64,000 nucleotides of DNA. Origin: Leptolyngbyaceae cyanobacterium. Its GTDB lineage: Bacteria; Cyanobacteriota; Cyanobacteriia; Phormidesmidales; Phormidesmidaceae. Shown one piece after another: positions 311-63,916 of this stretch. Where the stretch lies: NCBI GenBank assembly GCA_050331235.1, contig JBHJHA010000036.1, forward strand, positions 1 through 64,000, read 5' to 3'. Below the pieces are notes generated by a model, which searched no databases, was not told where the DNA came from, and was given only the letters and a program-made list of their open reading frames with translations. Position 1 is the stretch's first letter; the number at the start of each line of letters is the position of its first letter. The translations under genes and the position numbers were made by a program.

Positions 311-415
311 GTCTAACGCTAAGCTAACGGGCAATAATACTGCGGTAAAGTGCGTAAGCATCGCAGTGTTATTGTCCCAGCGACCGAAGGGAGCGAGTTA
401 AGCGCCTTGTTAGGC
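311..415 (-). mobile_element. attC recombination site (59-base element) of an integron gene cassette
   Basis: The minus strand reads GCCTAAC-AAGGCGCTTAACTCGCTCCCTTCGGTCGCTGGGACAATAACACTGCG...CGCAGTATTATTGCCCGTTAGCTTAGC-GTTAGAC. This gives an RYYYAAC inverse core, an imperfect palindrome and a GTTRRRY core. The TAA stop of the upstream ORF lies inside the inverse core. Confidence 0.85.
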
Positions 416-814
416 ATCTACATCTTCACCTTCTAGGAATATCTGTACGCCATGTGGCATGACTTCCCAGTCAGCTTTTGAACCCACGTAAATATGTTTA
501 ACGCTATCTAATTCGGGACTGCCATCGACGCAACCTAACGTAACACCATGAATTGTGCCCTTACAAGTACCGCAGAGTGTAGAACCACAAACTTTGCAAA
601 ACTGCAGACCAAATCCTTGCTCACCCGTGTAAGTTGTGAGCAATTCTTCTCCACTGGTCCACATAAAGTCTGAGGGTTCAACAATTGCATATGCAGAAGC
701 TTGTGAATTGAATGCCTTTCGACACTGAGAACAATGGCAAGACCGTGGATCTTTTAGTTTCCCACTAATCCTATATTTAACTCTGCCGCAGAAACATCCA
801 CCTGTTACATCCAC
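410..814 (-). CDS. GFA (glutathione-dependent formaldehyde-activating / CENP-V) family protein; cassette gene
   Basis: Zn-binding motifs GGCFCG, CHCSQCRK and FCKVCGS, plus HIYVGSKADW. An AGGAG RBS precedes the GTG start, and a GTTAGGC core site lies just upstream (829-835). Confidence 0.9.
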   Translation of the reverse strand: MDVTGGCFCGRVKYRISGKLKDPRSCHCSQCRKAFNSQASAYAIVEPSDFMWTSGEELLTTYTGEQGFGLQFCKVCGSTLCGTCKGTIHGVTLGCVDGSPELDSVKHIYVGSKADWEVMPHGVQIFLEGEDVDA

Positions 815-988
815 AAATTTCTCCTGATGCCTAACAACTTATTAGAGAGAATCATTCCACATAACATGATAGAGTCTCGAAGCCATCAAAGTGACCGTAT
901 CACAGGGCTTTCAATGGCTTCTAAACCCATCTTGGAATGGGTGAATATGTGGAACGCATAGTGTTCTAACCCTACCAGCTATAACGTT

Positions 989-1160
989 AGCAAGTCGCTG
1001 TAGAATAATGCCGACTGTAGGCGATGTGGCGGTGGATGGCGCTGATGTTCTCTACAGTTGGCCTATGACCGACATGTTTGAGCGTTGAAGAGTGCCATGA
1101 GCTATCGGATGGATCGTCGTGCCTATGCCGAAACCTACGGGCCGACCATGGGCGATCGCG
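989..1160 (+). repeat. Diverged direct-repeat copy 1 of the ureC upstream region and first 21 codons (copy 2 at 1820-1992)
   Basis: AGCAAGTC...GTAGAATAATGCCGACTGTAGGCGAT...ATGAGCTA(T/C)CGGATGGATCGTCGTGCCTATGCCGAAACCTACGGGCCGACC(A/G)TGGGCGATCGCG is present at both positions with scattered substitutions. Confidence 0.95.
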
Positions 1161-37074: not shown

Positions 37075-37081
37075 AACTGAC

Positions 37082-41658: not shown

Positions 41659-41670
41659 TGGGTATTTCAC

Positions 41671-48630: not shown

Positions 48631-48642
48631 TCAAGAACGCCT

Positions 48643-49194
48643 ATGCCCCGTCCCCAAACTGGTTTAAAGACGAATGATATCGCTCTCGCCTATGTGCTGC
48701 TGCGAGTAGTGGTGGGCATCAACTACTTCAACCATGGATTTACCCGCATTGGCAATATTCCCGGCTTTGTCAACGCGATGGTGGGGGCCATGGATAGAGC
48801 CTGGATGCCTGAACCTTTGGTTCGTACTACTGCTGTTCTCGTCTCCCCCGTCGAGCTCGTCTTCGGCCTGTTCCTGCTGTTGGGGTTGTTTACTCGGATT
48901 TCTGTGATAGTGCTCTTTGTGCTGATGGCGATATTGATGTACGGCGTCACCATCGTGCAAAACTGGGATTCGGCCTCAAGCCAGTTAATCTACAACATTG
49001 TGCTGTTTATTCTCTTAGCGGCCCAGGGGTACAACCGTTGGTCGCTTGACGATGTGTTGTTTGGGCGCGATCGCTCACAAGTCGTTGACCCGTCTGGCAA
49101 TCCGACCGATGCTGTCAATTCCCGTAGACGTGGAGCACGATGGCATAAGCCAGGCCGGATTTCATACTTCTGGCCGAAGGGGCCTTCACATTAA
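48643..49194 (+). CDS. DoxX family membrane protein
   Basis: LLRVVVG..YFNHG, VELVFG..LLLGLFTR and WSLD. Confidence 0.85.
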   Translation: MPRPQTGLKTNDIALAYVLLRVVVGINYFNHGFTRIGNIPGFVNAMVGAMDRAWMPEPLVRTTAVLVSPVELVFGLFLLLGLFTRISVIVLFVLMAILMYGVTIVQNWDSASSQLIYNIVLFILLAAQGYNRWSLDDVLFGRDRSQVVDPSGNPTDAVNSRRRGARWHKPGRISYFWPKGPSH

Positions 49195-49321
49195 CTCAAT
49201 TAGGATAAATCAGTGTTGATTTCCGTTAGCGGATTGGTGAGGAAAGTCTGTGGATTTTTCTCCGCGAAGAGTGTTTCCTTGACGCTAGTCAGGCATTAGC
49301 AGTTGCACTGAGATATTACTG

Positions 49322-49723
49322 ATGAAATATTTGCCCCTGGTTGCCCGAATTGCCCTTGCTTTAGTCTTTCTCGTATCTGGTGTTAAACATTTGGTCGGTT
49401 TTTCAGGATTTGTCGACATGATCGGACAAAGCCTGCCCCTTGCGCCGTTACTGGCGATTGGTACGATTGCGTTTCAGATTTTGGGCGCGCTTTCTTTGAT
49501 TCTTGGCTACAAAGTTAATATCGGTGCCACACTGCTGTTGGTTTTTCTGATTCCAGCGACGCTGGTCTATCATAATCCGCTCATTGACGGTAGTCAGATG
49601 ACTGCATTCCTCAAAAATCTTGGACTAGTGGGTGGTCTTTTGTTGGTGATTTATGCGGGTGCAGGCGCAGCCAGTGTTGATCGCAGTCAAAGCCGGTCAG
49701 AGCACTATCCAGAAGTCAGTTAG
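49322..49723 (+). CDS. DoxX family membrane protein
   Basis: ARIALALVFLVSG, FLIPATLVYH and FLKNLGLVGGLL. Confidence 0.9.
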   Translation: MKYLPLVARIALALVFLVSGVKHLVGFSGFVDMIGQSLPLAPLLAIGTIAFQILGALSLILGYKVNIGATLLLVFLIPATLVYHNPLIDGSQMTAFLKNLGLVGGLLLVIYAGAGAASVDRSQSRSEHYPEVS

Positions 49724-49760
49724 TGGATGGCAATCGCGGAATTTTGCATACTTAACCGCC

Positions 49761-49792
49761 AAATCCTACTTGTTGTTTCAGGTAGGATTTTT
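49761..49792 (+). terminator. Probable intrinsic terminator
   Basis: AAATCCTAC...GTAGGATTT stem followed by T-rich sequence, downstream of the second DoxX gene. Confidence 0.55.
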
Positions 49793-50067
49793 AATTTAAG
49801 GGCAACCACAGAAGATTCAGTCTGAGATTCCATGGGTGATGTATTGATAACCTGGCAGCGAGACCATCACTTTTGGAAAACTTAGTAAGAGTAGTCGCAC
49901 AATGCGTGGTGAATCCCGCATCCGTGGTCTACTAGCTACAAGCTTCGCCTATGAATAATTTGGCTGCGCGACACCTATCCTTCTCATGTCCTGGGTCAGG
50001 TTTTGCCCCGGCGAAATGTTGAGCCAAATCTTGCTTCCAAAACCGAATTTTCGGAAACTGACACCCC

Positions 50068-51543
50068 ATGGCTGACTCTAAACTCAAAAACTACATCAAC
50101 GGTGAATGGTGCGTCTCAAGCGCAAGCGATCGCTTGCCAGTGCACAATCCCGCGACCGCAGAGATCTTAGCGGAGGTGCCACTTTCTCCCGCGGCAGAGG
50201 TGGATGCGGCAACTGCTGCTGCTGTTGAGGCCTTTGCTGAATGGCGGCGGATGCCAGCGGTGGAGCGAGTGCAGTATCTGTTTAGACTCAAAGCCAGCTT
50301 AGAGCGTTACGCCGATGAGCTGGCTGAGTTAGTCACGTTAGAGTGTGGCAAAACTCTGAAAGAGTCTCGCGGTGAACTGCAGCGAGCCATTGAGAATGTT
50401 GAGGTTGCCTGCGGAATTCCCACGGCTATGCAGGGCGCTTTTTCTGAGGATATTGCCCGGGGCATTGACGAGTTTATGGTGCGTCAGCCTTTGGGAGTGG
50501 CGGCGGCGATCGCCCCGTTTAACTTTCCCGCCATGATTCCGTTTTGGTTCATGCCTTATGCCCTTGCCTGCGGCAATACCTATCTGGTGAAGCCCTCCGA
50601 AAAGGTGCCCCTGACTCTGCAAAAAGTGTTTGAACTGATTGACCAGGTTGGGTTTCCCGCTGGGGTGGTTAACTTGGTGAATGGGGCAAAGGAAACCGTC
50701 GACGCAATTCTCCAGCATCCTGATATCCGGGCCATTAGCTTTGTGGGTTCATCGCCGGTGGCTCGATATATCTATGCTCAGGCTGCAGCTCAGGGCAAGC
50801 GGGTGCAGTGTCAAGGCGGGGCCAAAAATCCGGTTGTCGTCTTGCCCGATGCTGATGTAGCCATGACGACTCGCATTGTAGCGGATAGCGCGTTTGGCTG
50901 TGCTGGCCAGCGATGTCTGGCTGCCTCTTTGGCGGTGACTGTGGGAGACGCTAAAGCTGAGTTTACCGACGCGATCGCGGCTGCCGCTGCTAGTCGGGTG
51001 ATCGGCAACGGATTAGATCCCGATGTGCAAATGGGGCCGGTGATCACTGCTCACAGCCGCGATCGCATTGCCTCCCTAATTCAAGCAGGGGTTGATGAAG
51101 GTGCTGAAGTGCTGGTTGACGGTCGTAGACCTGGCATTGCTGGCCTCGAACGGGGCAACTTCATCAAACCGAGTGTGCTGCAAGCGGTGTCACCTGCCAG
51201 CAAGATTGCTCAAACCGAGATTTTTGGCCCCGTTTTAGGCTTGTTGCACGTGGCCACCATTGATGAGGCGATCGCCCTTGTCAACCGGAGCTCCTGGGGT
51301 AATATGGCTTGTCTCTTTACCAGTAGCGGGGCCGCGGCGCGTAAGTTTCGCTACGAAGCTGAAGCCGGCAATATTGGCATCAATATCGGGGTGGCGGCAC
51401 CGATGGCGTTTTTCCCTTTCAGTGGCTGGAAAGAAAGCTTTTTTGGCGACTTGCACGGTCAAAGTCACCATGCGGTGGAATTCTTCACCCAAACAAAAGT
51501 CGTGATTGAACGCTGGCCTAAAGAATGGAGCCGACAGTTCTAA
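50068..51543 (+). CDS. mmsA: CoA-acylating methylmalonate-semialdehyde dehydrogenase
   Basis: [34 protein letters not shown] and EIFGPV. Confidence 0.93.
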
Positions 51544-51587: not shown

Positions 51588-52142
51588 CTAGCTGAGGTTA
51601 AACTTTTCTCGGTAGAACGGGACGTTTTTTAGCTGTTCCCGATTTTGTTGAATAAATTGTGCTTCCTCACTTAAAAACTGTCGAGTCTGAGACAAGATGT
51701 GTTGCGAACGGAGACTGCCCATGGGATATATCCGCACAAATCTCGGCTGAACCCGATGGAAAATCGAATGATAAGTCAACGGCGGCTCTCGAAACTGATA
51801 AGCGAAAGCGGCTTGTTGATTAATCGCGGCGGGTAGCGCCCGTGTACTTTGAATTTCAAATCGTAACGGAACTGCAGGCCCCAAGCGCTTGATCGGTTGG
51901 CAGAGCGGGCTGAATGTTGATGGAGCCTCAATGGTCAGGTGTCTGAGTGTGCCAACCATCCGTTCGTCATACACAACCCAGCCTTGCTGCGCGTATTGCC
52001 GTGGAGGGCTCACGTGTAAGTCTGAATCAGGCCAAGATAACGCCCCTTTAAATGTCGGCACCACGAATTGGAATTCATTGAGATCGGCGATCGCAATTTC
52101 GGTAGGGCTGACTTGGGACTGTAGACGGCGACCAAAAAACAT
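51588..52142 (-). CDS. Hypothetical protein (true start possibly upstream, across a frameshift)
   Basis: 184 aa open frame with no recognisable family motif. Confidence 0.45.
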   Translation of the reverse strand: MFFGRRLQSQVSPTEIAIADLNEFQFVVPTFKGALSWPDSDLHVSPPRQYAQQGWVVYDERMVGTLRHLTIEAPSTFSPLCQPIKRLGPAVPLRFEIQSTRALPAAINQQAAFAYQFREPPLTYHSIFHRVQPRFVRIYPMGSLRSQHILSQTRQFLSEEAQFIQQNREQLKNVPFYREKFNLS

Positions 52143-52409: not shown

Positions 52410-52868
52410 TTACACCTTCAACAGTACTTGGTCGCCTTCAATTTTGGCCTCATAGGTTTCAAGCGGATCGGTTGCGGGACCGGACGCAACTGAGCCATCT
52501 GGGTTGAAGCTGGAGCCGTGGCAGGGACAGGTAAATGCGCTTGCTTCCCAGTCGACACTGCAGCCCTGATGCGTGCATAAAGAATTGACAGCAATCAAAG
52601 CATCGGCGTTGTTGGGGTCGCGGGTGACAACAAATTGGGTTCCACGAAAGTCTTTATCAGAGAGGGTCCCCGACGCATCGAGTTCGGATACCGAGCCGAT
52701 AGCGACAAAGCCATCTTCGCGGGGGGCCGAATCTGCGGCGGCGGTATCATCGGTAGCTTCAGTATCGCTGGTTGAGGTCGGGTCTGACTGACAGGCGGCG
52801 ATCGCGACCGGCAAAGAAGTTGCCAGCACCCCCACGCCCATCCAGTTGACAAAGTCACGTCGATTCAT
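52410..52868 (-). CDS. Small Rieske [2Fe-2S] lipoprotein with Tat signal (PetC3-like)
   Basis: NRRDFV twin-arginine motif, IAAC lipobox, and Rieske boxes CTHQGC and CPCHGS. Confidence 0.93.
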
Positions 52869-52901
52869 TGTTCCGTTTTCCTCGCAAAATATTGATGATC
52901 A

Positions 52902-54596
52902 TTACAAAGTATCGGCCGATGTCAATATTTGGGCGCGTTTCCAACCGCCCCAGCGGCGGAGGGCAGTGACACCGACCAATAGCAAGTCGGCACTGACGAC
53001 CCCGGCAATTAACAGCTCCGAGCCGCCGGTGCCAAAGCCGTAACTATGTAGACCTGTGCCCAGTACAAAGTTGACGCCATACCAAGCCATCAGCACAGCA
53101 TTGAATGACACAATGCTAGCGACATGGATGCCGAAGTCACCGATCCAGCCGACTAAACGCCCATGCAGAGGGGCAAGGTAGCAAAGCAAGGCTATGAGCG
53201 CCCAGGTTTCCTTTGGATCCCAACCCCAAAAGCGACCCCAAGAAAAATGAGCCCAAATCCCCCCGAGGATAATGCCAGCGGTGAGTAATAGCACCCCGAC
53301 TTGCAAAACGCGGTAGTTGAGCTGGGATAGAACTTTGAGGCGCTGGCTAGCCTGGGGGGTAAACAGATAATTGAATAAAGCTACATGGCCGACTCCCAGT
53401 GCCAAAGCGAAACTCGCATAGCTGAGGGTGATGGTGGGAACGTGGATGCTGAGCCAAAAGTTATCTCGCAGTACAGGCACTAAGGGCGCAATGCTCGGAT
53501 CGAGTACGGCGGGCAAACTGTCAGCTAACACCAAACAAACCACGGAGAGGGGGGCGGCGGCCAATAGGTAAAACCGCTTGCGAGAAAAGACCTCCAGCAA
53601 CAGGGCGATCGCCGTAATACCAAAACCACACCACACCACTGATTCGTACATGTTGGTGACCGGTGGGCGATCGGCAATCTGCATCCGCAGGAAAAAGCCG
53701 TAGCTTTGGACTGCAATCCCCGCTGTAAATAATCCAATGGCTGACCAGTAAATGGGCCAGCGCTGCATCCACTGACTGGTCAACAGCACCACAAAGGCGA
53801 TCGCATAGAGCTGCCAAGCTTTAGCAAACGGATGGAAATGGTTGAAATGGACTTCGCGCGCCATGATGCCATCAGTGGGATAAACTCCAGGACTAAGCTG
53901 CTGAAGTCCTGACTTAAGATCGGTGGTAAAGGCGCTAATCATGGGCACATGGGTCAAACCGCCTTGCAACAGTGCCTGCTGCATCGTGGTAAAGGTGGCG
54001 AGGAGAGGCGCCACCGACTCGGGACTGTAGAGCTGGGTAGCTCCCTCCAAGCCGACCCACTTACCTTTGCGATCACTGGGGTGGGGCACAATTGGTAAGC
54101 CACGATCGCTGACTGACTGATACAGCAGATTGAGCCGGTCTTCAACAGTCAAAGCTTCTCGTTCATTGCGACTGAGATCGAGCTCATTCAGTTCCTTTTG
54201 ATGGGCGCTGCTGACAATGGTCCCGAGTTCTCGATTTGCCATCAATTCCTGAAAGCTGAAATGTTTACGCTCGAGGGACAGTCCAGCCACCTCCTTTAAG
54301 GGCCGATAGTTTACCAGCACAAAAGGTTCCTCATTCCAGTTGCGAGTGTTGAACCACATCGCGAGATAAGTGCTGAGCGCTCTTTCGCGGGTGCCATCGG
54401 TGTGTTTATAAGTGGTTGAACCGTTGATTTTGGCGACGGTTTCCTGGGCCACCGTATCCAAGGGCTTCTTCCGTCCGTCTAGCTGCACTGCGAGCGATCG
54501 CAGCGACGCTAATCCATCCGGTTGCCACTGACTGACGGGCAACACCAGTAGCAAGCAACCAAGAATTAAACCGATGAAAAACGTAATCAGTTTCAT
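52902..54596 (-). CDS. ccsA: System II cytochrome c synthase CcsA with a large N-terminal extracytoplasmic domain
   Basis: PPVTNMYES, PVLRDNFWLSIHV, WWD motif WAHFSWGRFWGWDPKETW and GLHSYG. Confidence 0.93.
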   Translation of the reverse strand: MKLITFFIGLILGCLLLVLPVSQWQPDGLASLRSLAVQLDGRKKPLDTVAQETVAKINGSTTYKHTDGTRERALSTYLAMWFNTRNWNEEPFVLVNYRPLKEVAGLSLERKHFSFQELMANRELGTIVSSAHQKELNELDLSRNEREALTVEDRLNLLYQSVSDRGLPIVPHPSDRKGKWVGLEGATQLYSPESVAPLLATFTTMQQALLQGGLTHVPMISAFTTDLKSGLQQLSPGVYPTDGIMAREVHFNHFHPFAKAWQLYAIAFVVLLTSQWMQRWPIYWSAIGLFTAGIAVQSYGFFLRMQIADRPPVTNMYESVVWCGFGITAIALLLEVFSRKRFYLLAAAPLSVVCLVLADSLPAVLDPSIAPLVPVLRDNFWLSIHVPTITLSYASFALALGVGHVALFNYLFTPQASQRLKVLSQLNYRVLQVGVLLLTAGIILGGIWAHFSWGRFWGWDPKETWALIALLCYLAPLHGRLVGWIGDFGIHVASIVSFNAVLMAWYGVNFVLGTGLHSYGFGTGGSELLIAGVVSADLLLVGVTALRRWGGWKRAQILTSADTL

Positions 54597-54686
54597 AGGG
54601 CCAGCGATATTCAACAAAGATCAGGGCTATAAATTTGCGTGGGCGATCGCCCGGTGAACGGTTGTGGTGACAGTGCGATGCATTCG

Positions 54687-56498
54687 TTACTTGCCAAACA
54701 CCGCTAAAATTGGAATTGTTCCGCCAGTTTCCTCGGGCACCTCTTCCGCGACCGATGGGGCCTCGTCGGGGGAGGGCGATCGCCACCATTGGCGCCACCG
54801 CTTGAGCAAACTAGGTCCGTAAAACATGGTGGCGATACCCAGGACGACCAGCAACGAGCCGGTCCAAGTCAGGGCCGTGACCCACCAAGGTTCGCGCTTG
54901 AGCTGCAGAGTTGACTGCTGCAGGTCCCCCGGATTCCAAGACGCTTGGGCGAGCTTCCAACCCCGAAACCAAGTGGGGTGATTCATCCATACTGAGCGCT
55001 GTACTGCCGTATCCGTTTGCGGGTCAAACAGGGTCAAATCACTGGTCCACATGGCGACCGACTCGCTACCCTCGTTGCGCTCCACGATGAAATCGTTTAG
55101 CTTGACGTAAAACGGTAGCTCGAGCAGCTTGGGGCTAAACGCGGCAAAATATTGCCCAGCACTGGTTTCGAGGACTTTTGGTTCTCCCCAGGGGAGCCAA
55201 AAGTCCTCGCCCTCGGCGGTCGCTATGTGCAGCGCCGGAGTCCCTTCATTCGGGCGGGCATTGGCTGCAACCGGCATCACCGGTACAATCTGTCGCTGCA
55301 CCTGTGCGTGGTCAAGTTGTTCGACCAGCGTAATTTGAAAATCGGCCCAGCCCGGAATGACGGCTTCCCCGGGCTGGAATTTGCCCGTGCTGAAACCCTG
55401 GGCAGACGCGGCGGCGAAATACAGGTCCTGCCCAGGCGTTGTCACGATGCGAAAATAATCCGTAGGAGTCGCTACCGGCGGCTTATAGGCGATCGCTATC
55501 TCAATCCCGTCGTCCGAGCGTACCGGAGGCAGCCCTGGGTTGCCAAAGACAAACCATCGTTCCTGTTGACTTTCCTGGGAGACTAACAACTGCACCGCTG
55601 GATTGCGAAACTGCTCGGAGGCTGATGTGGGCTGCCCATCACCATTCAGGCGAAAATCGGGCCAGACAGCGGTGACTTCGACGTTGGTCCCCTCCTCCAA
55701 CGTGAGGGACTGTCCCTGGATTTGAGCGATATCAAAGTGGCGATCGCGCTGCTTAGCCGCAACGATGGCTATCTCGCCGAGGGGATGCTCAACCTCGGCG
55801 GGTGGACTCAACCACCGCTGCTGCTCAGCAGCATCGCCGACGGACACAATTTCAAAATGGGCAGGACCGATGTCTAACTGGCTATATCCTGCGGGAGCGA
55901 CGGCTAGCCAGCGGTCCAACGTTTGACCCATGCGATCGCTGTGCAGCTGAATCTTGACGGCTGGATTAGGAACCGTGCCCGTATTGTCAAACGCGACGGT
56001 CTTGATGGCGTTGTCGCTATAGCCCAGCAGCGAGAGCCCCGCAAATTGCTGAGGATATACTGACCCATCAGAACGCACAAAAATATCACTTTGCTGGCGG
56101 GTGCGATCGGGTGCAACGACTTCCAGCAGGTCACCCTGAATGCGAATTTGGGACCCTGGACCAGCATCCGTGCGTACGAGCAGCATCCCTTCCGTACTGA
56201 GATGAATTACAGCGGCTGAGCCAGCGATGATGATGACTAGGCCCCAGTGGGTTAAGGCAAAGCCCACCTTGCGGGGACCTTTCCAAGGCCAGCGGTTCAG
56301 GGTCGAGAGACCCAAATTAACTGCTAACAAAAACATCAGAGCGCCAAACCAAGCGCTCTTATAAATCTCTCGTTGAACGGTGAGTGGACCCACATTTGAT
56401 TCATAAAAAGTAGCACCAATCAAGATGACAGAAATCACTGTCAAGAGTGGTACTGCTAATCGAATAGAGCCTAAATATTGGATGAGTCGAGACTTCAT
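54687..56498 (-). CDS. ResB/CcsB(Ccs1)-like cytochrome c biogenesis protein
   Basis: LGSIRLAV.LL...IGATFYE, IYKSAWF, GFALTHWG (conserved His), LPFYVKLNDF, WMNHP...GWKLAQASW and a C-terminal TM. It is adjacent to ccsA. Confidence 0.88.
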   Translation of the reverse strand: MKSRLIQYLGSIRLAVPLLTVISVILIGATFYESNVGPLTVQREIYKSAWFGALMFLLAVNLGLSTLNRWPWKGPRKVGFALTHWGLVIIIAGSAAVIHLSTEGMLLVRTDAGPGSQIRIQGDLLEVVAPDRTRQQSDIFVRSDGSVYPQQFAGLSLLGYSDNAIKTVAFDNTGTVPNPAVKIQLHSDRMGQTLDRWLAVAPAGYSQLDIGPAHFEIVSVGDAAEQQRWLSPPAEVEHPLGEIAIVAAKQRDRHFDIAQIQGQSLTLEEGTNVEVTAVWPDFRLNGDGQPTSASEQFRNPAVQLLVSQESQQERWFVFGNPGLPPVRSDDGIEIAIAYKPPVATPTDYFRIVTTPGQDLYFAAASAQGFSTGKFQPGEAVIPGWADFQITLVEQLDHAQVQRQIVPVMPVAANARPNEGTPALHIATAEGEDFWLPWGEPKVLETSAGQYFAAFSPKLLELPFYVKLNDFIVERNEGSESVAMWTSDLTLFDPQTDTAVQRSVWMNHPTWFRGWKLAQASWNPGDLQQSTLQLKREPWWVTALTWTGSLLVVLGIATMFYGPSLLKRWRQWWRSPSPDEAPSVAEEVPEETGGTIPILAVFGK

Positions 56499-56560
56499 AT
56501 TTAGAAGAGATACCGCAGAAACTCGTATTCCAAATCATTCATTCGCTTTCCAATAGTTTT

Positions 56561-56576
56561 TGTAAAAAGCATCACA
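56561..56576. promoter_or_regulatory. Candidate CRP/NtcA-family binding site
   Basis: TGTAA-AAAGCA-TCACA with T4/A4 flanks. It is one mismatch from TGTGA-N6-TCACA and one from TGTA-N8-TACA, in the divergent promoter region. Confidence 0.4.
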
Positions 56577-57181
56577 AAAATAAATTAATTGGTGCGGAAA
56601 GCGATCGTGACCCATGCGAAAACCGCATCGATCATCCTAAAAATATATCTAAGACGCCTTTAAAATTCCTCCTTCAGAAGGATTTTTGAGTCGTCTTTAG
56701 AGATCGAAAGCTAACTCGATAACCGGATATGTACTGAATAAACGTATCAAAAATGCATTTATTGCATCGAATCAATGCGTTAAGCGTATGGTTTTTATGG
56801 GAATTGTGCTTGGTTTTACAAAACAAGAAATATACCTTCTCTATTGTCAAGTCCATGGTTCTGTTTTTGGTTTGCGAAAGAAAATCACGCTTTCGCTCTG
56901 AATATTTGAAGTCAGAGTCCGCGTCTGGCTTTCGAAATTTAGACGGTTTTGCAGTTGAATTTTTTGTTGATTGAGTATTGCCGTTCAGAGATTGCTTCAG
57001 GGTTGATTGGTTTTTCGGCTTCTGGCGCTGGAATTTGATTGTTCTGTTGGGTGCGATTTTTGGCGGTCTAGCTACTCAATGACTGTGTTTTTCTTTGGGA
57101 TATAGAGTTTCTTGGGAGACAGGGATTAATGGTTTCAAGTACGAATGACGCGTCTGAGGAGAAAGGATTACAGGTTAGCTA

Positions 57182-58150
57182 TTGGAGCGTAGCTTTGAGA
57201 AGGTGACTCCCCGAGCCGATGATTTTGTAGCGAGCTTTTACAGCAATCTATTCGCTGATTATCCAGACGCGAAGCCGCTGTTTGCCCACACCAATATGGC
57301 TAAGCAGCAGAAAATGCTGCTGGAATCTCTTGTCTTTGTTGTCGAGAATTTGCGCCAGCCCGAGGCTTTGTCGGGGGCTCTTCAGGGCCTCGGTGCCCGG
57401 CATATGAAATATGGGGCGCTGCCTGAGCATTATCCGTTGGTGGGCAACTCGCTGCTCAAAACGTTTAGCCAGTACTTGGGAAATGATTGGACTCCAGAAA
57501 CTCAGCAGGCTTGGGCTGAGGCTTATGGAGCGATTACGATGCTCATGTTGGAGGGGGCCGATTACGCCCCAGAGCAAGTCCAGTTGGAGCCGCCGGCTGA
57601 GGTGGATGAAGCCACAGGACTCAAGATTCAGCTGCTGGAAGAGAGCTTTGGTAAGGTGGCTCCCCAGGCTGATGCGTTTGTCGGCAGTTTTTACGACAAC
57701 TTATTCACGGACTACCCAGCCGCTAAGCCTTTATTTACCCATACCAATATGGGCAAGCAGAAAAAGATGCTGCTGGAGTCTTTGGTGTTTGTTATCGAAA
57801 ACCTGCGCCAGCCCGGGAAACTGACCGAGGCTTTGAAGGGGCTCGGCACTCGCCATGTGCAGTACGGCGCTTTGCCCGATCACTATCCGCTGGTGGGCAA
57901 CTCGTTGCTCAAGACCTTTGAGCAGTACCTCGGTAGTGACTGGACTGATGAAGTGAAGCAGGCCTGGGTGGATGCCTATGGTCTTATCACAACGGTCATG
58001 TTGGAAGGCGCTGATTATGATCGAGCCTCTGTCCAGCTACCCTCTACAGCTACGCTCGAAGCGCCAGAAAGCAACATCAATATGGGGGCAGCAGCCGGTA
58101 TTGCTGGCGGCGGCCTGATTGCCTTGATTGCGCTGATCTTGCTGGTCTAA
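57182..58150 (+). CDS. Tandem two-domain globin (flavohemoglobin/single-domain-globin-like) with a C-terminal TM anchor; 5' end probably at ATG 57129 across a 1-nt deletion
   Basis: Two near-identical domains, each SFY.NLF.DYP.AKPLF...KQ.KMLL...LG.RH..YGALP.HYPLVG...W..AYG. The tail is GIAGGGLIALIALILLV. Confidence 0.92.
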   Translation: MERSFEKVTPRADDFVASFYSNLFADYPDAKPLFAHTNMAKQQKMLLESLVFVVENLRQPEALSGALQGLGARHMKYGALPEHYPLVGNSLLKTFSQYLGNDWTPETQQAWAEAYGAITMLMLEGADYAPEQVQLEPPAEVDEATGLKIQLLEESFGKVAPQADAFVGSFYDNLFTDYPAAKPLFTHTNMGKQKKMLLESLVFVIENLRQPGKLTEALKGLGTRHVQYGALPDHYPLVGNSLLKTFEQYLGSDWTDEVKQAWVDAYGLITTVMLEGADYDRASVQLPSTATLEAPESNINMGAAAGIAGGGLIALIALILLV

Positions 58151-58177
58151 GTCGAGGATGCACACGGAGCAAGATTG

Positions 58178-58822
58178 ATGGCTTTGAGAAGCCGAATACT
58201 GAGGGGGCGATCGCTCCTGACTCTGAGAACGGCAATCGTCCTCGTTTGCATTATCCTGGTGGGCTGGTTTGGTGCGGCGTTTGCCCTGGACAACAAGCAG
58301 GCGTTCTTGCCAGGGGAGACCTCAGTCGGTCACTACCTGTTTGAAACGTCCTGCAGTTCTTGTCACGAAGGGTTTAAGCCCGTGAGTAACGACACCTGCA
58401 TGCGCTGTCATGAGGCGGAGATGGCTGAGGATAAGCACGGTGCGGCTAAGTTCCGGGATCCTCGGTGGGCGGGGGAGCTGCAAAAGATTGAAGCGCTGAC
58501 TTGCACCACTTGCCATAACGAGCATGTCCACATGTTTGGACGGGGGGTCCATTTGCAGCCCGATCTATGTATGAACTGCCACCAAGGCATCATTGAGGGC
58601 GATCTCAAGAGTCATGACGGCTTTGCCGCCGATGGGTGTTGGACGGCGGGCTGCCACAACTACCACGATCACCGCTCAATTTCGACTGGGTTTTTGATTG
58701 AAAATGTTGACCAACCGCCCATGCTGCCGGTGCAGCTGTTACCTGATCGAATCGTTTTAACCCAGGTGTATAGGGCACCGAGTCCTGATCTAAGTGACGC
58801 CTTTTTGCAAGGGGGGGCATGA
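58178..58822 (+). CDS. Membrane-anchored multiheme cytochrome c (4 CxxCH + 1 CX4CH)
   Basis: CSSCH, CMRCH, CTTCH, CMNCH and CWTAGCH, with an N-terminal hydrophobic helix. Confidence 0.92.
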   Translation: MALRSRILRGRSLLTLRTAIVLVCIILVGWFGAAFALDNKQAFLPGETSVGHYLFETSCSSCHEGFKPVSNDTCMRCHEAEMAEDKHGAAKFRDPRWAGELQKIEALTCTTCHNEHVHMFGRGVHLQPDLCMNCHQGIIEGDLKSHDGFAADGCWTAGCHNYHDHRSISTGFLIENVDQPPMLPVQLLPDRIVLTQVYRAPSPDLSDAFLQGGA

Positions 58823-59631
58823 TGTTGCAGCGACTCTGGGGTCGAGCGATCGCCCTGATGGTATTGCCGCTATTGCTATTGGGCAATGGGGGCCTGCCAG
58901 CCCAGGCTAACCCTGTTGATCGCGCTCAAGTTGAGACCGTTACTCAGCTTTGGCAAACCAGTGCCCATGCCCTGAATGAAATTAACTGCTCCAGTTGTCA
59001 TGAATCATCCGCGACTCAGGAATTTGTGGCCCGCCCGGGCGTCGAAAGTTGTCAATCCTGTCATCAGCAAGACGTCGATACCTTCTTACTCGGTAAGCAC
59101 GGCATTCGGCTGCTGGAGGGTGATACGCCCCTCACGCCCGCGATGGCTCGTCTGCCGATGCAGCCCGACGTGATGAACCAGCCCATGACCTGCAATAGCT
59201 GTCACGACGTTCACTCGGTCAATACCATGCAGGCGGCGGTCGATTCTTGCTTGGGGTGCCACAGCGACTCGCACTCGTTGAACTACGGTGATTCCCGCCA
59301 TGCGGACCTGTTTGCCGCTGATCGCGACTTGCCGCGCCCCTCGGCGACCTCGGTGAGCTGTGCTACCTGCCACCTGCCGCGTCATCAGACTGGGACGGGC
59401 GATAGCGCAGTTACGCTGATCAATCACAACAATACCTACACGCTGCTCCCCCGCGATCGCATGGTCAAGGACGTGTGCATGAATTGCCACGGTATGGAGT
59501 ACAGCTACAACAGCATTTTTGACGATGACCTCGTGGAGGCAAATTTTAACGCCCCACCGACCCTTGCCCTAAAAACTTTTGACCTTGTCCGGGCGTTTGA
59601 AGAGCGTCGCACTGATCAGGGTGAGAGTTAG
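58819..59631 (+). CDS. Exported hexaheme cytochrome c
   Basis: Signal peptide ending AQA; CSSCH, CQSCH, CNSCH, CLGCH, CATCH and CMNCH; distal-His motifs WQTSAH, GKHG and YGDSRH. ATGA overlap with the previous gene. Confidence 0.93.
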   Translation: MMLQRLWGRAIALMVLPLLLLGNGGLPAQANPVDRAQVETVTQLWQTSAHALNEINCSSCHESSATQEFVARPGVESCQSCHQQDVDTFLLGKHGIRLLEGDTPLTPAMARLPMQPDVMNQPMTCNSCHDVHSVNTMQAAVDSCLGCHSDSHSLNYGDSRHADLFAADRDLPRPSATSVSCATCHLPRHQTGTGDSAVTLINHNNTYTLLPRDRMVKDVCMNCHGMEYSYNSIFDDDLVEANFNAPPTLALKTFDLVRAFEERRTDQGES

Positions 59632-59755
59632 GGCGATCGTCAAATTCAACGTTCGCATCGACGAACAATTGCGCACATCGCGATCGCATCACCTTCGCAC
59701 AATTTCACGTTTCACGTTTGGCAGTTTCTGATTCTAAACAGAGGAGAAAAAGGAT

Positions 59756-60409
59756 ATGACACTTGTAGGAAGATGTATGAATACCCTGCGAACTCGCACG
59801 GTCGCTTTCATCGCGATCATCATGGCGGTTGCCGTTACTGCGATCTCTTGTAGCAGCAGCGGCACAACTGCAACCGCCGCCCCCGGCATCTCGCCCGAGT
59901 TGGTGGCTGATTACATTCACACGGTTATGGAGGCTGACCGCACTGCCTATACCAAGCACGTGGTCAACCGCGCCACCATGCTAGAAGGCAAAGAAAAGGC
60001 CGACGGCGTAGTTCCGGTTGAAGCAACTGAGGCTTGGCAGCAAGGTGAGGGCATTCCCCTGCCCGCCCAAATGTTCCGTCTGGGCTCTGAGATTGCCAAC
60101 GAAAAAGGTTATTTCACTTACAACCTCATCTCACCTTGGTATATCAATGACAGCCACGCCCCTAAAGGCGAGTTTGAGGAAACCGCGGTCGAAACCATGA
60201 TCGAAACTGGTGAACCCGTCAAAGACTATCAAGAAATTGGCGGGCAGCAGTACTTCTCGGCGATGTACCCCGACAAGGCGGTGGCTGAGGCTTGTGTATC
60301 TTGCCACAACACCCATCCCATTCACCTGGAGCGCTATCCCGATAAGCAGTTCGAGATGGACGAGGTGATGGGCGGCATCGTCATCAACATTCCCCTAGAG
60401 GGAGCCTAA
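59756..60409 (+). CDS. DUF3365 / Tll0287-like monoheme c lipoprotein
   Basis: Lipobox AISC, PLPAQMF, LISPW.IN..HAP...FE, ACVSCH and VMGGIVINIP. Alternative ATG at 59777. Confidence 0.85.
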   Translation: MTLVGRCMNTLRTRTVAFIAIIMAVAVTAISCSSSGTTATAAPGISPELVADYIHTVMEADRTAYTKHVVNRATMLEGKEKADGVVPVEATEAWQQGEGIPLPAQMFRLGSEIANEKGYFTYNLISPWYINDSHAPKGEFEETAVETMIETGEPVKDYQEIGGQQYFSAMYPDKAVAEACVSCHNTHPIHLERYPDKQFEMDEVMGGIVINIPLEGA

Positions 60410-60647
60410 CGCTAGTTCCAGACGACTAGCACTTCACATCTCCTAGTGAAACCACCGGAGAGGTTAATGGCCCGCGCCGTTGGCCTCTCCGGGGCCACGA
60501 TACCTACATTGAGCCTCCGCACTAGGTTTCTTTCGTCTGTTGGCAACGGTGACAGCGCCGTGATGGAGGCACCTGGAGTCGCTTAATGTGCCTTCAGGTG
60601 CTCCCTTAAACATATTTTTATTAGGACACTTACAGCCGGTTTGAGCC

Positions 60648-61376
60648 ATGAGTAGATCGCCTCGACCTCAGCATGTAGATCCCCCGTCTAATCAGCACTC
60701 CATCGAGTCACATGAGCCGCGGGTGGCCGATGCGGTGGCGGCGATCGCCCCCCAAAGGCAAAGGGCCTTTAAGCCGCGGGGTATCAAACCCAGCTTTAAG
60801 GTCCTGATCGGCCTGACATTGCTGACAGCGCTGCTGCTGACCCCATTTGTCGTGAGTGATCTATATCTCGATGCGCTTAGGGCGCGATCGTTTGATTTGC
60901 ATCAGTTTATCCGGGGGGAACTGTACAAGCAGTCGACCGGCTACGGAGCTTTGGTCTTGGTGTTAGTTGAGATGCTACTGACGGTGCGCAAGCGCGGTGG
61001 TGGCTGGCTGGCTCGGATCAAACTGCCAGGCTCAATGTTGATATGGCGGAGTACCCACATTTTTCTGGGCGTAGGGTTGCTGGGATTAGTGCTGGTGCAT
61101 ACTTTGGGCGCTAACGGCCTGAACTTTAACGCCATCTTTCTCTGGGTATTTTTTGCGACGACTTTGACGGCGTTGGTCGGCGTGGTCGCTGAAACTGGCA
61201 TTTTGGAATCCACCCAGAGCTACTTTGGCAAACTGCCGGGGTCAAACGTGGCTTTAACGAAAGGGCCACTCATTCGCGGGTTGAGAGCCATTTGGCTGAC
61301 TAGCCATATCTTTTTTGTGGCTGTCTTTGGTGTGATGCTGATTTTTCACATTGCGCTGGCTTACTACTATCAGTGA
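60648..61376 (+). CDS. Ferric-reductase-like (putative di-heme b) transmembrane protein
   Basis: Several TM helices carrying two H-x13-H pairs (WRSTHIFLG...LVH and WLTSHIFF...IFH) and a TGY motif upstream. Confidence 0.7.
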   Translation: MSRSPRPQHVDPPSNQHSIESHEPRVADAVAAIAPQRQRAFKPRGIKPSFKVLIGLTLLTALLLTPFVVSDLYLDALRARSFDLHQFIRGELYKQSTGYGALVLVLVEMLLTVRKRGGGWLARIKLPGSMLIWRSTHIFLGVGLLGLVLVHTLGANGLNFNAIFLWVFFATTLTALVGVVAETGILESTQSYFGKLPGSNVALTKGPLIRGLRAIWLTSHIFFVAVFGVMLIFHIALAYYYQ

Positions 61377-61464
61377 AGACGCTGACTTATTTAGCACGCT
61401 GGTTGGGTAAACGGGTGGAGTCTTGGGTGTCGCATTTTGTGTTGGTGTATTACGGATAGAGGCT

Positions 61465-61995
61465 ATGACGGATCAAATTCGTTTGTTGGAAACCAGTTTT
61501 GCCCAGGTCCGACCTAAGGCGATGGCCTTCTCAGATTGTTTTCACCGCCATTTATTTCAAAACCATCCAGACATCGAGCCCATGTTCAGCGACGTGAGCC
61601 TCGAATTGCAAGAAAAAAAGCTGATCGCTTCCCTTGCGCTCATTGTTGAAAATTTGCATAACCCGGCGGCTTTAGCCCATGCACTTCAAGCCTTGGGGGC
61701 CTATCACGTGACCAAGGGAACCCTGGCAGAGCATTACCCCTATGTGGGGCAGGCCCTGATGCAGGCCTTTGCCGAATTTTTGGGGGATGAATGGACGCCT
61801 GCTGTCGCTGAGGCGTGGCAGGCGGCCTATCGCACGATTTGCGATTTGATGCTGGAGGGGGCGGAGCATCCCCAAGCGTATCTAGAGGGTGAGCTGACCT
61901 TTTATGAATGGCTAGATCTATATGGCGAGTCTAGTCCGACGTTACACAAGCTTGTGGAGTCGACCACCCACTTTAAATATGGCGCTAAAGGGTAG
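61465..61995 (+). CDS. Single-domain globin with a C-terminal extension
   Basis: LLETSF, FHRHLFQNHP...PMF, QEKKL, LGAYH (proximal His), HYPYVG and WTPAVAEAW. Confidence 0.9.
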   Translation: MTDQIRLLETSFAQVRPKAMAFSDCFHRHLFQNHPDIEPMFSDVSLELQEKKLIASLALIVENLHNPAALAHALQALGAYHVTKGTLAEHYPYVGQALMQAFAEFLGDEWTPAVAEAWQAAYRTICDLMLEGAEHPQAYLEGELTFYEWLDLYGESSPTLHKLVESTTHFKYGAKG

Positions 61996-62051
61996 CGGCG
62001 TTGATGCAGACCTTTTGACCAAGCGATTTGATATTGATGGAGTCGGTAGTG

Positions 62052-62528
62052 ATGACGGTGAATCGAGGTTCTGACAACCCAGCGATGAATCGGGGCAGCC
62101 GGTGGGCGATCGTGATAATTGCCACCTTTGCGATCGCCGCATTTTGGCTAACTCGTCCGGTAGCGGATGCCCATTTTTCTCCGGTATCTGGCCTAATGTC
62201 GTTGAAAGCCAGTGCTCAACAGGCGATGCCCTATCAGGTCGCAATGCACAATGGCAAGCCGACGCTGATTGAGTTTTACGCTGACTGGTGTACCACCTGC
62301 CAGGGGATGGCCCCTACCTTGGCGTCTATCCACGAGCAATTGGGAGGGTCTGTCAACTGGGTAATGCTGGATATTGATGATCCCCAGTGGCGCGACCAGA
62401 TACAGCAGTTTCACGTTACCGGTGTGCCCCATCTGGTTCTGCAAACGGGGCAGGGGGCGATCGCTGACAGTTTTGTGGGTAAGGTACCCGGGCCCATTCT
62501 CTTACGGAGTATTGAGCAAATGTTCTAG
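62052..62528 (+). CDS. Membrane-anchored thioredoxin (TxlA/HCF164/ResA-like)
   Basis: N-terminal TM, GKPTLIEFYADWCTTC and VTGVPH. The start is uncertain (62028-62085). Confidence 0.88.
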   Translation: MTVNRGSDNPAMNRGSRWAIVIIATFAIAAFWLTRPVADAHFSPVSGLMSLKASAQQAMPYQVAMHNGKPTLIEFYADWCTTCQGMAPTLASIHEQLGGSVNWVMLDIDDPQWRDQIQQFHVTGVPHLVLQTGQGAIADSFVGKVPGPILLRSIEQMF

Positions 62529-62587
62529 GCCTTCTCAAGTTCTACTGCTGTAGTGGAGAAGCGCACGGTTAACTCAGAGGTGAAATC

Positions 62588-62800
62588 ATGTCAAAGCCAT
62601 CCGCCTGTTTCTCGTCCCCGGCATGTGAATGGGTCAATTCGCAGACCCAGCGCGGGGTGAGTGATTACGTGTCAGGGTTGCATCGCCATATGGTCCAGAC
62701 ATCGGTAACTGCACAGGTGCGCAGCAATCTGCAGCTGGCGAGCCTAGAGACTCAGTATTCTCGCTATCTCTCAACGGCGTCTTTGACCCGAAAGGTGTGA
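62588..62800 (+). CDS. Small hypothetical protein
   Basis: GAGGTG RBS before the ATG and a GTGA overlap with the next ORF. No family motif. Confidence 0.35.
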   Translation: MSKPSACFSSPACEWVNSQTQRGVSDYVSGLHRHMVQTSVTAQVRSNLQLASLETQYSRYLSTASLTRKV

Positions 62801-63024
62801 CCCAAATGGCAATTTTAAATCGGTTGCTGCTTTTACTGAAGTTTTTGGAAACCCTGGTTGAGTTCGGCGATTTTTTAACCACTCCGGTGGGAATTGCTGG
62901 AATCTTCTGCCTGATCAGCTATCCGGCGTTTACGTTAATGGGGTGCGACCCCACGGCGGCCGCCATTTTGGCGAGTACGGCAGCACTCACTGTACACTGC
63001 ACCGTAAATCATCCAAGCGATTAG
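62797..63024 (+). CDS. Small hypothetical membrane protein
   Basis: Hydrophobic 75 aa ORF coupled to the previous ORF, ending 10 nt before chaN. Confidence 0.4.
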   Translation: MTQMAILNRLLLLLKFLETLVEFGDFLTTPVGIAGIFCLISYPAFTLMGCDPTAAAILASTAALTVHCTVNHPSD

Positions 63025-63034
63025 GGACTGCTCA

Positions 63035-63916
63035 ATGTCAATCCGATTTCAACTTTGGGGTTGGGGCTGGGCCCTCGCGGGCACGTTGCTAATCACCGCA
63101 CCCGCCTGTTCTGGCGATGAGGCGATCGCCCCGCAGTCAACGCCGATGGTCCTCTCTAGTACTGAGGATGACGCCTTTCAAGCCTTACAGTCAGCCGATG
63201 TAGTTTACTTAGGAGAACGGCACGATAGCCCCCTTGACCACGCAGCTCAACTAGAGATCATTAAGGCCCTTTATGCCGCCGATCCAGAGATTGCGATCGC
63301 CCTAGAGATGTTTCAGCGGCCCTTTCAACCGGTGATTGATCGGTATCTAGCGGGAGATATTTCCGAGGCAGCCCTAGTCAAGCAGACTGAATACCAAGAA
63401 CGTTGGGGCTTTCCCTGGGAGTTTTACGCGCCGGTCGTGCGGTTTGCCCAGGCCCAAGACCTGCCTGTGCTCGCACTGAATGCCCCCGCGGAAATCACCC
63501 GACAAATTGCCCGCGAAGGGCTTACTAGCTTATCCGGCAATGACTTTCGCTATATTCCACCGGTTGAGGCGATCGACACCACTAACCCAGACTACCGCGA
63601 CTTTGTCACCGCTGCGTTTGGTGCTCACGGGGCCCACGGAGATTTTAATTTCGACAACTTTTTTGCGGCGCAGGTGACCTGGGACGAAACGATGGCCATG
63701 ACCATTGCTGAGTTTAAGGCCGATAATCCCGATACTCAGGTCGTCGTATTGGCGGGTAATGGACACGTGATCTACGGCTGGGGCATTCCTGACCGGGTAC
63801 AGCGCCGACTGGGCGAGGAGCTGATACAGCAAATTGTGGTGCTGAATCCGAGTCCTGAGGTGGAGCAGGCAAAGGGGGCGATCGCCGATCTCTTTTGGTA
63901 CAGCGAAGGGCCATAG
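63035..63916 (+). CDS. ChaN family heme-binding lipoprotein
   Basis: Lipobox APAC, VVYLGERHD, IALEMF, WGFPWEFYAP, ALNAP, AQVTWDETMA and LAGNGHV.YG.GIP.R. Confidence 0.9.
   Translation: MSIRFQLWGWGWALAGTLLITAPACSGDEAIAPQSTPMVLSSTEDDAFQALQSADVVYLGERHDSPLDHAAQLEIIKALYAADPEIAIALEMFQRPFQPVIDRYLAGDISEAALVKQTEYQERWGFPWEFYAPVVRFAQAQDLPVLALNAPAEITRQIAREGLTSLSGNDFRYIPPVEAIDTTNPDYRDFVTAAFGAHGAHGDFNFDNFFAAQVTWDETMAMTIAEFKADNPDTQVVVLAGNGHVIYGWGIPDRVQRRLGEELIQQIVVLNPSPEVEQAKGAIADLFWYSEGP

Follow-up and report, generated by a model that had tools for sequence, protein, structure and literature searches.

Hmc, Tmc and Qrc of sulfate reducers, and CbcL of Geobacter, are transmembrane redox complexes in which a multiheme c-type cytochrome is joined to a cytochrome b in the membrane and a redox subunit in the cytoplasm. 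NrfI and CcsA1 of Wolinella are dedicated System II synthases for special heme sites, and the known chemistry of the flavohemoglobin (FHb) family is nitric oxide (NO) dioxygenation. Cyanobacteria are, to our knowledge, textbook organisms with mono-heme c-type cytochromes only. In narK-bjgb-flp-nasC, an operon of Bradyrhizobium, a single-domain FHb-type globin and an NAD(P)H flavoprotein are encoded among genes for nitrate and nitrite assimilation and remove NO that stems from nitrate use (PMC4724949). Here, we analyze a 64,000-nt stretch of DNA from a Leptolyngbyaceae cyanobacterium (GenBank assembly GCA_050331235.1, contig JBHJHA010000036.1, positions 1 to 64,000), hereafter the window, in which an island of 11 genes encodes two multiheme cytochromes c, a Tll0287-like lipoprotein, a PetC3-like Rieske protein, a four-histidine membrane protein (Mem4H), FHb-type globins and enzymes for heme-c attachment. 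The island is one co-inherited system, and its core recurs outside cyanobacteria. That its parts form a single transmembrane electron chain, one likely to handle NO or related nitrogen oxides, is a proposal that we regard as nearly balanced, leaning slightly toward doubt.

All 11 genes were confirmed by the list of open reading frames (ORFs), Pfam and NCBIfam, with Pfam naming 10 of the 11. An earlier note on this DNA, hereafter the original prediction, had described two divergent arms carrying 12 heme-c attachment sites and three globin domains. Both the layout and the counts are borne out: the minus-strand arm holds three genes and the plus-strand arm eight, as follows.

52410..52868, minus strand: PetC3-like Rieske [2Fe-2S] lipoprotein (PF00355, 54.7 bits)
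52902..54617, minus strand: CcsA2, second System II heme-handling subunit, 571 residues (PF01578, 114.5 bits against a cut-off of 29.9)
54687..56498, minus strand: CcsB2, divergent ResB-like protein, 603 residues (PF05140, 50.6 bits against a cut-off of 24.6, partial match)
56499..57128: AT-rich intergenic stretch from which the two arms, maturation and globin-cytochrome, diverge (G+C content about 43%)
57129..58150, plus strand: tail-anchored di-globin (two PF00042 domains, 127.8 bits)
58175..58822, plus strand: MHC5, exported 5-heme cytochrome c, 215 residues (four CXXCH and one CX4CH)
58819..59631, plus strand: MHC6, exported 6-heme cytochrome c, 270 residues (six CXXCH)
59756..60409, plus strand: Tll0287-like (DUF3365, sCache_heme) mono-heme c lipoprotein (PF11845, 76 bits against a cut-off of 24.1)
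60648..61376, plus strand: Mem4H, four-His membrane protein, 242 residues (four invariant His)
61423..61995, plus strand: second globin, single-domain FHb-type, accessory (PF00042, 57.8 bits; likely start Met15, at 61465)
62028..62528, plus strand: membrane-anchored thioredoxin-like protein with WCTTC (PF00085, 57.4 bits; likely start Met9, at 62052)
63035..63916, plus strand: ChaN-family heme-binding lipoprotein, accessory (PF04187, 241 bits; conserved lipobox Cys25)

Like Hmc, Tmc, Qrc and CbcL, the island is predicted to join a multiheme cytochrome c with bis-His hemes in the periplasm to a b-type carrier in the membrane and a partner in the cytoplasm. Unlike them, it shows no membership of their families, and its cytoplasmic partner is a globin or, in relatives outside cyanobacteria, a NirB-type reductase fused to the membrane protein. 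This fusion shares with NirB and NorW the FAD/NAD(P)H plus BFD [2Fe-2S] module, but the siroheme half of NirB is replaced by a four-His membrane domain, and the window protein consists of that membrane domain only. The closest described logic is that of the Bjgb-Flp pair (PMC4724949): the relatives likewise pair a globin with a NirB-type flavoprotein, in L102 beside NirA, and L128 is another of the few loci in which such a pair stands in a nitrate-assimilation setting. In contrast to Bjgb-Flp, the flavoprotein of the relatives carries a predicted di-heme membrane domain as a fusion and is linked to 12 c hemes that are exported, whereas the window form has neither a flavoprotein partner nor nas genes, and its globin is duplicated and tail-anchored. 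The original prediction knew of no functional description of the assembly, and we likewise found none in literature searches that were partly aimed at the cluster, either for the cluster or for the fused module; an Idiomarina paper and a tar-patty preprint do not describe the module.

With MHC6 as query, one genome per species was scanned, giving 188 genomes with a relative, from which the best 80 loci were kept (74 labeled cyanobacterium and 6 labeled "uncultured bacterium"); at E ≤ 1e-3, MHC6 has 622 relatives. Presence of the other island genes was counted by tblastn with the window proteins in the 45 loci that have full 10-kb flanks. The globin, MHC5, Tll0287-like and Mem4H genes accompany MHC6 in 45 of 45 loci each. 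CcsA2, CcsB2 and the thioredoxin are present in 43 each, with the CcsB2 gene adjoining the CcsA2 gene in 43 of the 45, and the Rieske gene is present in 40. Accessory genes are ChaN, found in 16 of 45, and a separate second globin, found in 7 of 45. The flanking genes of the window (NDH-2, two DoxX, an aldehyde dehydrogenase and a 184-residue ORF) are not conserved with the island; tblastn across the 80 related loci returned one weak NDH2 match and no DoxX match. The proposition that these genes form one co-inherited system is therefore upheld by a core present in every cyanobacterial locus with full flanks. The island is rare, its 6-heme protein occurring in 3 of 400 other genomes that sample the phylum evenly. 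In a tree of the 6-heme part, which is unrooted, a branch supported at 99/97 has all 22 cyanobacterial rows to one side of it. Many of the carriers are, by their labels, benthic mat formers, and the window itself comes from a stromatolite metagenome. Cultured carriers include Leptolyngbya sp. PCC 7375, Halomicronema sp. CCY15110 and Coleofasciculus.

The neighborhood search that the original prediction had called for was extended beyond cyanobacteria by scanning metagenomes with distant stand-alone relatives of Mem4H, and a module of Mem4H, an 11-heme cytochrome and a Tll0287-like protein was recovered. Among the 43 loci obtained, 25 hold Mem4H-like, MHC5, MHC6 and Tll0287-like sequences together, and most of the remaining loci are short contigs. 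The Mem4H-like domain lies in an ORF of at least 550 residues in 24 of the 43 loci and stands alone in 11, while a globin is encoded in 15. In all 11 of the non-cyanobacterial ORFs inspected, MHC5 and MHC6 are fused into a single protein of 437 to 496 residues, with the heme sites in the order four CXXCH, CX4CH and six CXXCH. The MHC5 and MHC6 of the island are the N- and C-terminal halves of a split 11-heme cytochrome. Globins of the non-cyanobacterial loci are soluble and without a tail, and carry Tyr B10 and Gln E7. No match to the Rieske protein, CcsA2, CcsB2, thioredoxin or ChaN of the island was found in any of the 43 loci; these are therefore cyanobacterial additions. Hosts of the fusion proteins include Thiothrix, Noviherbaspirillum sedimenti and Gammaproteobacteria. 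The module is not peculiar to cyanobacteria, and its core is widespread in Proteobacteria-type metagenomic contigs.

In Mem4H, no exception to His137, His151, His220 and His234 occurs among 76 sequences or among 12 distant relatives; these His form pairs spaced 14 and 14 residues apart on two helices. The AlphaFold2 model has five long helices (predicted local distance difference test score, pLDDT, of 75), and the conserved core begins at about residue 46. We predict that the protein binds two b hemes. Known families give little guidance: no cytochrome b family was matched in Pfam at E ≤ 0.01, the sole likeness being the four His on two helices, and DUF4405 (PF14358) scores 17.3 bits, under its cut-off of 26.7, while the distant stand-alone relative P0132 reaches 39.3 bits. 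A profile search of the PDB returned 0 matches at E ≤ 10, Foldseek found nothing in the PDB at E ≤ 0.001, a wide VIA-align search gave helical hairpins only (best Z 9.2 over 77 residues), and matches in the ESM Atlas were to unnamed clusters only.

Relatives of the Mem4H domain are more informative. A profile search over 1.84 billion representatives found 252 at E ≤ 0.001, many of which are proteins of 640 to 690 residues with the domain at the C terminus, behind Pyr_redox_2, Rubredoxin_C and BFD [2Fe-2S] domains (Pfam). Other fusions carry BFD, FAD_binding_6 and NAD_binding_1. Mem4H aligns to residues 505 to 673 of the fusion protein P0156 with 35% identity (E 1.1e-7), and the N-terminal 460 residues of the fusion match positions 1 to 466 of the NirB model with 438 bits and NorW with 153 bits. 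An inside location of the Mem4H N terminus is inferred, which would place His137 and His220 toward the cytoplasm and His151 and His234 toward the outside; this topology agrees with the fusions, because cytoplasmic domains precede the first helix there. Such comparisons are strong evidence for a family that carries electrons between a redox partner in the cytoplasm and the outer side. The earlier suggestion that the membrane subunit is a transmembrane carrier is accordingly strengthened in part, by the four invariant His and by relatives fused to cytoplasmic NAD(P)H-flavin/[2Fe-2S] reductases.

On the outer side, the genes of MHC5 and MHC6 overlap by 4 nt. The motifs of MHC5, four CXXCH and one CWTAGCH (CX4CH), are kept in 80 of 80 sequences, and the six CXXCH motifs of MHC6 are all kept in 15 sequences. 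The N-terminal helix of MHC5 ends in a conserved AFA, which we read as a probable cleavage site. Outside the heme motifs, five His of MHC5 (53, 88, 117, 147 and 164) and six of MHC6 are conserved in 12 of 12 sequences, namely the window pair and the 11 fused forms. This amounts to one distal His per heme for all 11 hemes, with none open to a substrate, so the cytochrome pair is a wire rather than a catalyst. Room for a ligand exists only at the hemes of the globins, inside, and at that of the Tll0287-like protein, outside. A reading of MHC5 as a NapC/NirT/NrfH protein was rejected, as no such family was matched in Pfam at E ≤ 0.01. MHC6 has weak matches to proteins of the hydroxylamine oxidoreductase type (6h5l, E 1.4e-4; 1fgj, Foldseek E 0.033 on a poor model with a pLDDT of 64.7). 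This likeness to hydroxylamine oxidoreductase or octaheme nitrite reductase was not used as evidence, given the poor model; all six hemes keep a distal His. The QrcA, DmsE and ExtN models of NCBIfam match one paired-CXXCH stretch only, far under their cut-offs.

The Tll0287-like protein belongs to the stand-alone class of its family. Its motif is CVSCH, and C180xxC183H184 is kept in 78 of 78 sequences, with His187, His190 and the lipobox Cys32 also conserved. Its sole Cys residues are Cys32 and the CXXCH pair, as is likewise the case in five non-cyanobacterial members; the His/Cys axial ligation of Tll0287 would not be possible in the island protein, from which the distal Cys is absent. The DUF3365 sCache_heme family has been described in a preprint that reports no gene association for its stand-alone members, while its supplementary tables may list neighborhoods (10.64898/2026.02.01.703092). 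The island protein agrees with the stand-alone members in its PF11845 match above the cut-off, single CXXCH, export and lack of a signaling domain, but differs in being a lipoprotein, in having no distal Cys and in belonging to a fixed cassette.

The Rieske protein has a twin-arginine translocation (Tat) signal, RRDF, a lipobox Cys26 and the cluster boxes CTHQGC and CPCHGS. None of 46 sequences departs from the Cys and His ligands, RRDF or Cys26. Its best solved relative is PetC3 of Synechocystis (5CXM, E 2.7e-18), with which it shares a Tat signal with lipobox and a Phe in place of Tyr after the second cluster box. This replacement is the one sequence trait that bears on the low midpoint potential (about +135 mV) and plasma-membrane location of the PetC3 type. 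It differs from PetC3 in keeping Ser after that box and in the linkage of its gene to a multiheme island.

On the cytoplasmic side, the di-globin consists of two FHb-type globin domains and a hydrophobic C-terminal tail, which is present in 64 of 76 related globin ORFs. Against the flavohemoprotein model PRK13289 it matches in the globin part only (151 bits, cut-off 432), and neither globin protein has a Pfam match to FAD_binding_6 or NAD_binding_1, the C terminus of the di-globin being the hydrophobic tail. The proximal His74 and His225, Tyr B10 (Tyr20 and Tyr171) and Gln E7 are conserved in 53 sequences; for the proximal His95 of the second globin, conservation extends over 12. The globins are of the FHb type and have no signal peptide, in keeping with the cytoplasmic location first assigned to them. 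The genome holds a fourth globin domain at L131 989-1957 (G000:C34, minus strand), in a 322-residue protein that joins an FHb-type globin to a C-terminal domain with a CPGC motif; a 213-residue ORF (376..1017, minus strand) adjoins this gene.

The start of the di-globin gene requires a correction to the record. The start is ATG 57129, not the TTG 57182 of the listed ORF, which directly follows a stop codon. An extra G after 57176 is found in the contigs of three of three public runs and is absent from the record, so that the missing G puts the first 17 codons of the di-globin in another frame. With the G restored, the protein reads MVSSTNDASEEKGLQVELLERSF... from 57129, and its N terminus agrees with homologues. 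These three are the only public DNA runs that hold the stretch, and no RNA run is listed for it; all three belong to one stromatolite study, and one may be the source of the DNA. The frame break at 57176 is an assembly error or a rare variant.

The original prediction had called the island self-contained, with CcsB, CcsA and a ResA/HCF164-type thioredoxin all encoded. CcsA2 is enlarged by an N-terminal extension of about 290 residues, and it scores below the equivalog cut-off of the NCBIfam model TIGR03144 (153.5 against 187.6 bits). Its WWD stretch, WGRFWGWDPKETW, and His179, His392, His411, His457, His485 and His524 are invariant in 53 sequences. CcsB2 covers only positions 204 to 273 of the 486 in its Pfam profile and has no NCBIfam match; His84, His99 and His507 are conserved. 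In the thioredoxin, W87-C88-T-T-C91 is kept in 70 of 70 sequences; the protein would have a ResA/HCF164-like role. The genome also has housekeeping copies: a CcsA at G000:C94:34767-35564, in a 352-residue frame (Pfam, 247 bits), and a ResB at G000:C36:79843-81075 (217 bits). The single CcdA of the genome (the sole DsbD_TM match) lies beside this ResB at G000:C36:79041-79571, and the island has none; together, the housekeeping pair of ccdA and ccsB (ResB) spans G000:C36:79041-81075, on the island's own contig about 15 kb past the end of the window. The island thus appears to hold a second, dedicated System II set, which is not fully self-contained because the housekeeping CcsA and CcsB and the only CcdA sit elsewhere in the genome. 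"Self-contained" was an overstatement, with CcdA elsewhere and no cytoplasmic reductase encoded in the island; of the maturation set, the island encodes a CcsA with WWD, a ResB-like CcsB2 (a partial match) and a WCTTC thioredoxin, but no CcdA. Since the only CcdA lies beside the housekeeping ResB, the island thioredoxin would depend on that CcdA, and CcsB2, CcsA2 and the thioredoxin would with its help attach the 12 c hemes, including the one at the CX4CH site. The Wolinella synthases NrfI and CcsA1 offer a parallel: here, too, a second and divergent gene of the CcsA type stands beside the cytochromes that it would serve, one of which has a non-standard site (CX4CH). The island differs from them in that its CcsB and CcsA are separate genes, both enlarged.

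The distribution of CcsA2 follows that of the island. Among the 400 other genomes sampled, 6 have a CcsA2-type gene at E ≤ 1e-80. Three of the 6 hold the island; the other three, without the 6-heme protein, are two decayed islands and one contig edge. The two decayed copies are L129 (G334:C47:5000-23000) and L130 (G074:C1:1388000-1406000). In one of the pair, ChaN, the thioredoxin, a Mem4H fragment and CcsA2 remain. The other keeps the maturation genes (CcsA2 with two in-frame stops), the Rieske, ChaN and thioredoxin genes and the membrane protein, and has no cytochromes, Tll0287-like gene or globin. The CcsA2 type is seen solely in the island or in island remnants.

A link with nitrogen oxides comes from the comparative context. 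Nitrogen-oxide genes adjoin the cassette in 5 of 21 inspected non-cyanobacterial loci, a count with no background rate behind it and hence a lead, not a statistic. The neighbors are a NirA-family protein (838.7 bits, above the cut-off), a fusion of a NirA-like protein with a Rieske domain of the NirD type, NarI with hemerythrin, an ANTAR response regulator with an NrtA-like binding protein and a permease, and H-NOX. At L090 9159-9695 (minus strand), L102 6948-8402 and L127 12048-13745, non-cyanobacterial cassettes have an H-NOX gene in one locus and Alginate_exp-type outer-membrane barrel genes in two. The FHb lineage of the globins, with Tyr B10 and Gln E7, also bears on the link. Of 68 related loci, 34 have the NtcA-type sequence GTAN8TAC upstream of the globin gene, at a distance of at most 560 nt; there are 40 such sites against 4.0 +/- 2.0 (maximum 10) in 200 dinucleotide shuffles, an excess that is overstated by sites shared among kin. 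A PetC3 mutant is reported to have disturbed nitrogen-related proteins (PMC10172866).

Taken together, these observations are consistent with a chain in which the split 11-heme cytochrome, the Tll0287-like lipoprotein, the PetC3-like Rieske protein, Mem4H and the membrane-tethered FHb-type globins would act as one. Mem4H would pass electrons across the membrane through two b hemes, one held by His137 and His220 on the cytoplasmic side and the other by His151 and His234 on the outer side, and the globin tail would hold the globins at its cytoplasmic face. The path would run from globin to b hemes to the 11 c hemes, and from there to the Tll0287-like heme or the Rieske cluster. In the non-cyanobacterial relatives, NAD(P)H would enter through the fused NirB-type FAD/[2Fe-2S] module and electrons would flow outward. 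Cyanobacteria have a tethered globin and a Rieske protein instead of the NirB-type module, and the globin may serve as the cytoplasmic entry point, as an exit point or as a side branch. A narrower version, rather unlikely in our estimate, holds that in cyanobacteria, where a membrane wire of 13 to 16 hemes ends in the cytoplasm, a tail-anchored globin of the NO-dioxygenase type replaced the NAD(P)H reductase of the NirB type, such that binding of O2 or NO gates or drives flow to a Tll0287-type heme and a PetC3-type Rieske protein.

Several observations weigh against a chain that handles nitrogen oxides. The nitrogen link rests with a minority of the inspected loci, 16 of 21 having unrelated housekeeping neighbors. 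Exact GTAN8TAC is found neither in the intergenic region of the window nor in that of its closest relatives; the whole window has 7 sites against 5.1 expected, and the rest of it holds no nitrate-assimilation or nitrogen-oxide genes. A globin is present in 6 of 13 non-cyanobacterial cassettes with room on both sides and is thus not obligatory for the core. The cyanobacterial form encodes no cytoplasmic reductase, the candidates in its own genome being generic flavoproteins of 25 to 27% identity. The chain would sit in either the plasma membrane or the thylakoid, and sequence does not separate the two. Redox potentials also bear on its direction: published values are +123 mV for a stand-alone sCache_heme protein (10.64898/2026.02.01.703092) and, as quoted, +135 mV for PetC3 (PMC10172866), which would make both poor donors to an FHb-type globin. 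By analogy, these two potentials suggest an outward, downhill chain rather than an inward supply to the globin.

Outward flow is central to a rival explanation, which we judge unlikely, that the island is an electron sink for dark, anoxic mats, leading from the cytoplasm through di-heme Mem4H and the 11-heme wire to periplasmic or extracellular O2, S0/polysulfide or Fe(III), with the globins as an O2-sensitive entry or gate. The NAD(P)H-oxidizing cytoplasmic module of the relatives implies outward flow, 11 bis-His hemes are as found in electron conduits, and the stromatolite source and the many benthic mat-forming carriers suit such a habitat. An Alginate_exp-type barrel gene beside the cassette would fit as well, but is seen in only 2 of 21 relatives, and tblastn found outer-membrane cytochrome and porin-cytochrome genes to be absent from the island and from the 45 cyanobacterial loci. 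The terminal protein would, moreover, be a small one-heme lipoprotein, and the conserved globin pocket of the NO-dioxygenase type would be left without a role. Lower still in probability is a small Rieske/b-type quinol oxidoreductase, in which Mem4H would oxidize plastoquinol, the Rieske protein would take one electron and the multihemes would form an alternative branch. In its favor are the PetC3-type Rieske protein, present in 40 of 45 loci, c-type cytochromes encoded alongside, and two His pairs 14 residues apart on two helices, like cytochrome b. Yet Mem4H matches neither the cytochrome b family nor any solved structure by profile or fold, and the Rieske protein, a lipoprotein, has no membrane helix; the 43 non-cyanobacterial loci have no Rieske match, and an NAD(P)H reductase, rather than quinol, would feed the core there.

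Two further explanations are very improbable. One is sulfur chemistry, meaning the redox turnover of sulfide, thiosulfate or polysulfide in sulfidic mats, for which an NDH-2/SQR-like flavoprotein and two DoxX genes upstream (47344-49723) and the mat habitat of the source might be cited. Those upstream genes are not conserved with the island, however, the Tll0287-like protein has no distal Cys for His/Cys ligation, and no sulfur enzyme stands beside the 21 inspected relatives, bar one ATP sulfurylase. The other, scarcely to be expected, is heme storage or trafficking, with globins and ChaN buffering and delivering heme and the cytochromes serving as a store of heme or iron. The island is unusually rich in heme proteins and includes both the ChaN heme-binding lipoprotein and a dedicated heme-export/ligation pair; but ChaN is found in only 16 of 45 loci, the conservation of the Tyr B10 and Gln E7 pocket and of all 11 distal His is that of functioning redox proteins, and the fused NAD(P)H reductase of the relatives points to electron transfer. 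Among the roles listed in the original prediction, NO or nitrite chemistry is favored by the comparative context, whereas sulfur chemistry and extracellular electron transfer gained no support.

Other features of the window are given for completeness. Promoter and terminator scans of the intergenic region 56499..57128 returned matches at chance level. Just upstream of the island, 47344-51543 encodes an NDH-2-type flavoprotein, two DoxX-family membrane proteins and an aldehyde dehydrogenase. The 184-residue ORF at 51588-52142 (minus strand), to which no family was assigned, adjoins the Rieske gene; a relative with 36% identity stands beside the island remnant of G334, and weak relatives occur in L033 and L062. 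Further away are the urease alpha subunit (1923-3635), a 1182-residue multi-GAF protein followed on the opposite strand by a Ser/Thr kinase with WD40 repeats (10460-15934), and a glycosyltransferase and ABC-2/Wzt export cluster (36151-42594) with an adjoining ORF for a GMC oxidoreductase C-terminal domain (42649-44190).

The island adds an 11-heme wire, together with its own heme-attachment enzymes, to cyanobacteria, in about 190 species. It provides a fixed genetic context for the PetC3-type Rieske protein and the stand-alone Tll0287/sCache_heme protein, which makes the functions of both testable. The wider module, consisting of the NirB-type reductase-Mem4H fusion, the 11-heme cytochrome, sCache_heme and a globin, seems to be a proteobacterial system, so far undescribed, with ties to nitrate/nitrite assimilation, and could be a further route of NO or nitrogen-oxide turnover in soils, sediments and mats. 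If true, a globin-gated chain would give a function to the PetC3-type Rieske protein and the Tll0287-type protein, hitherto without any, and globin biology would gain something new in a globin that acts as a subunit of such a chain in the membrane.

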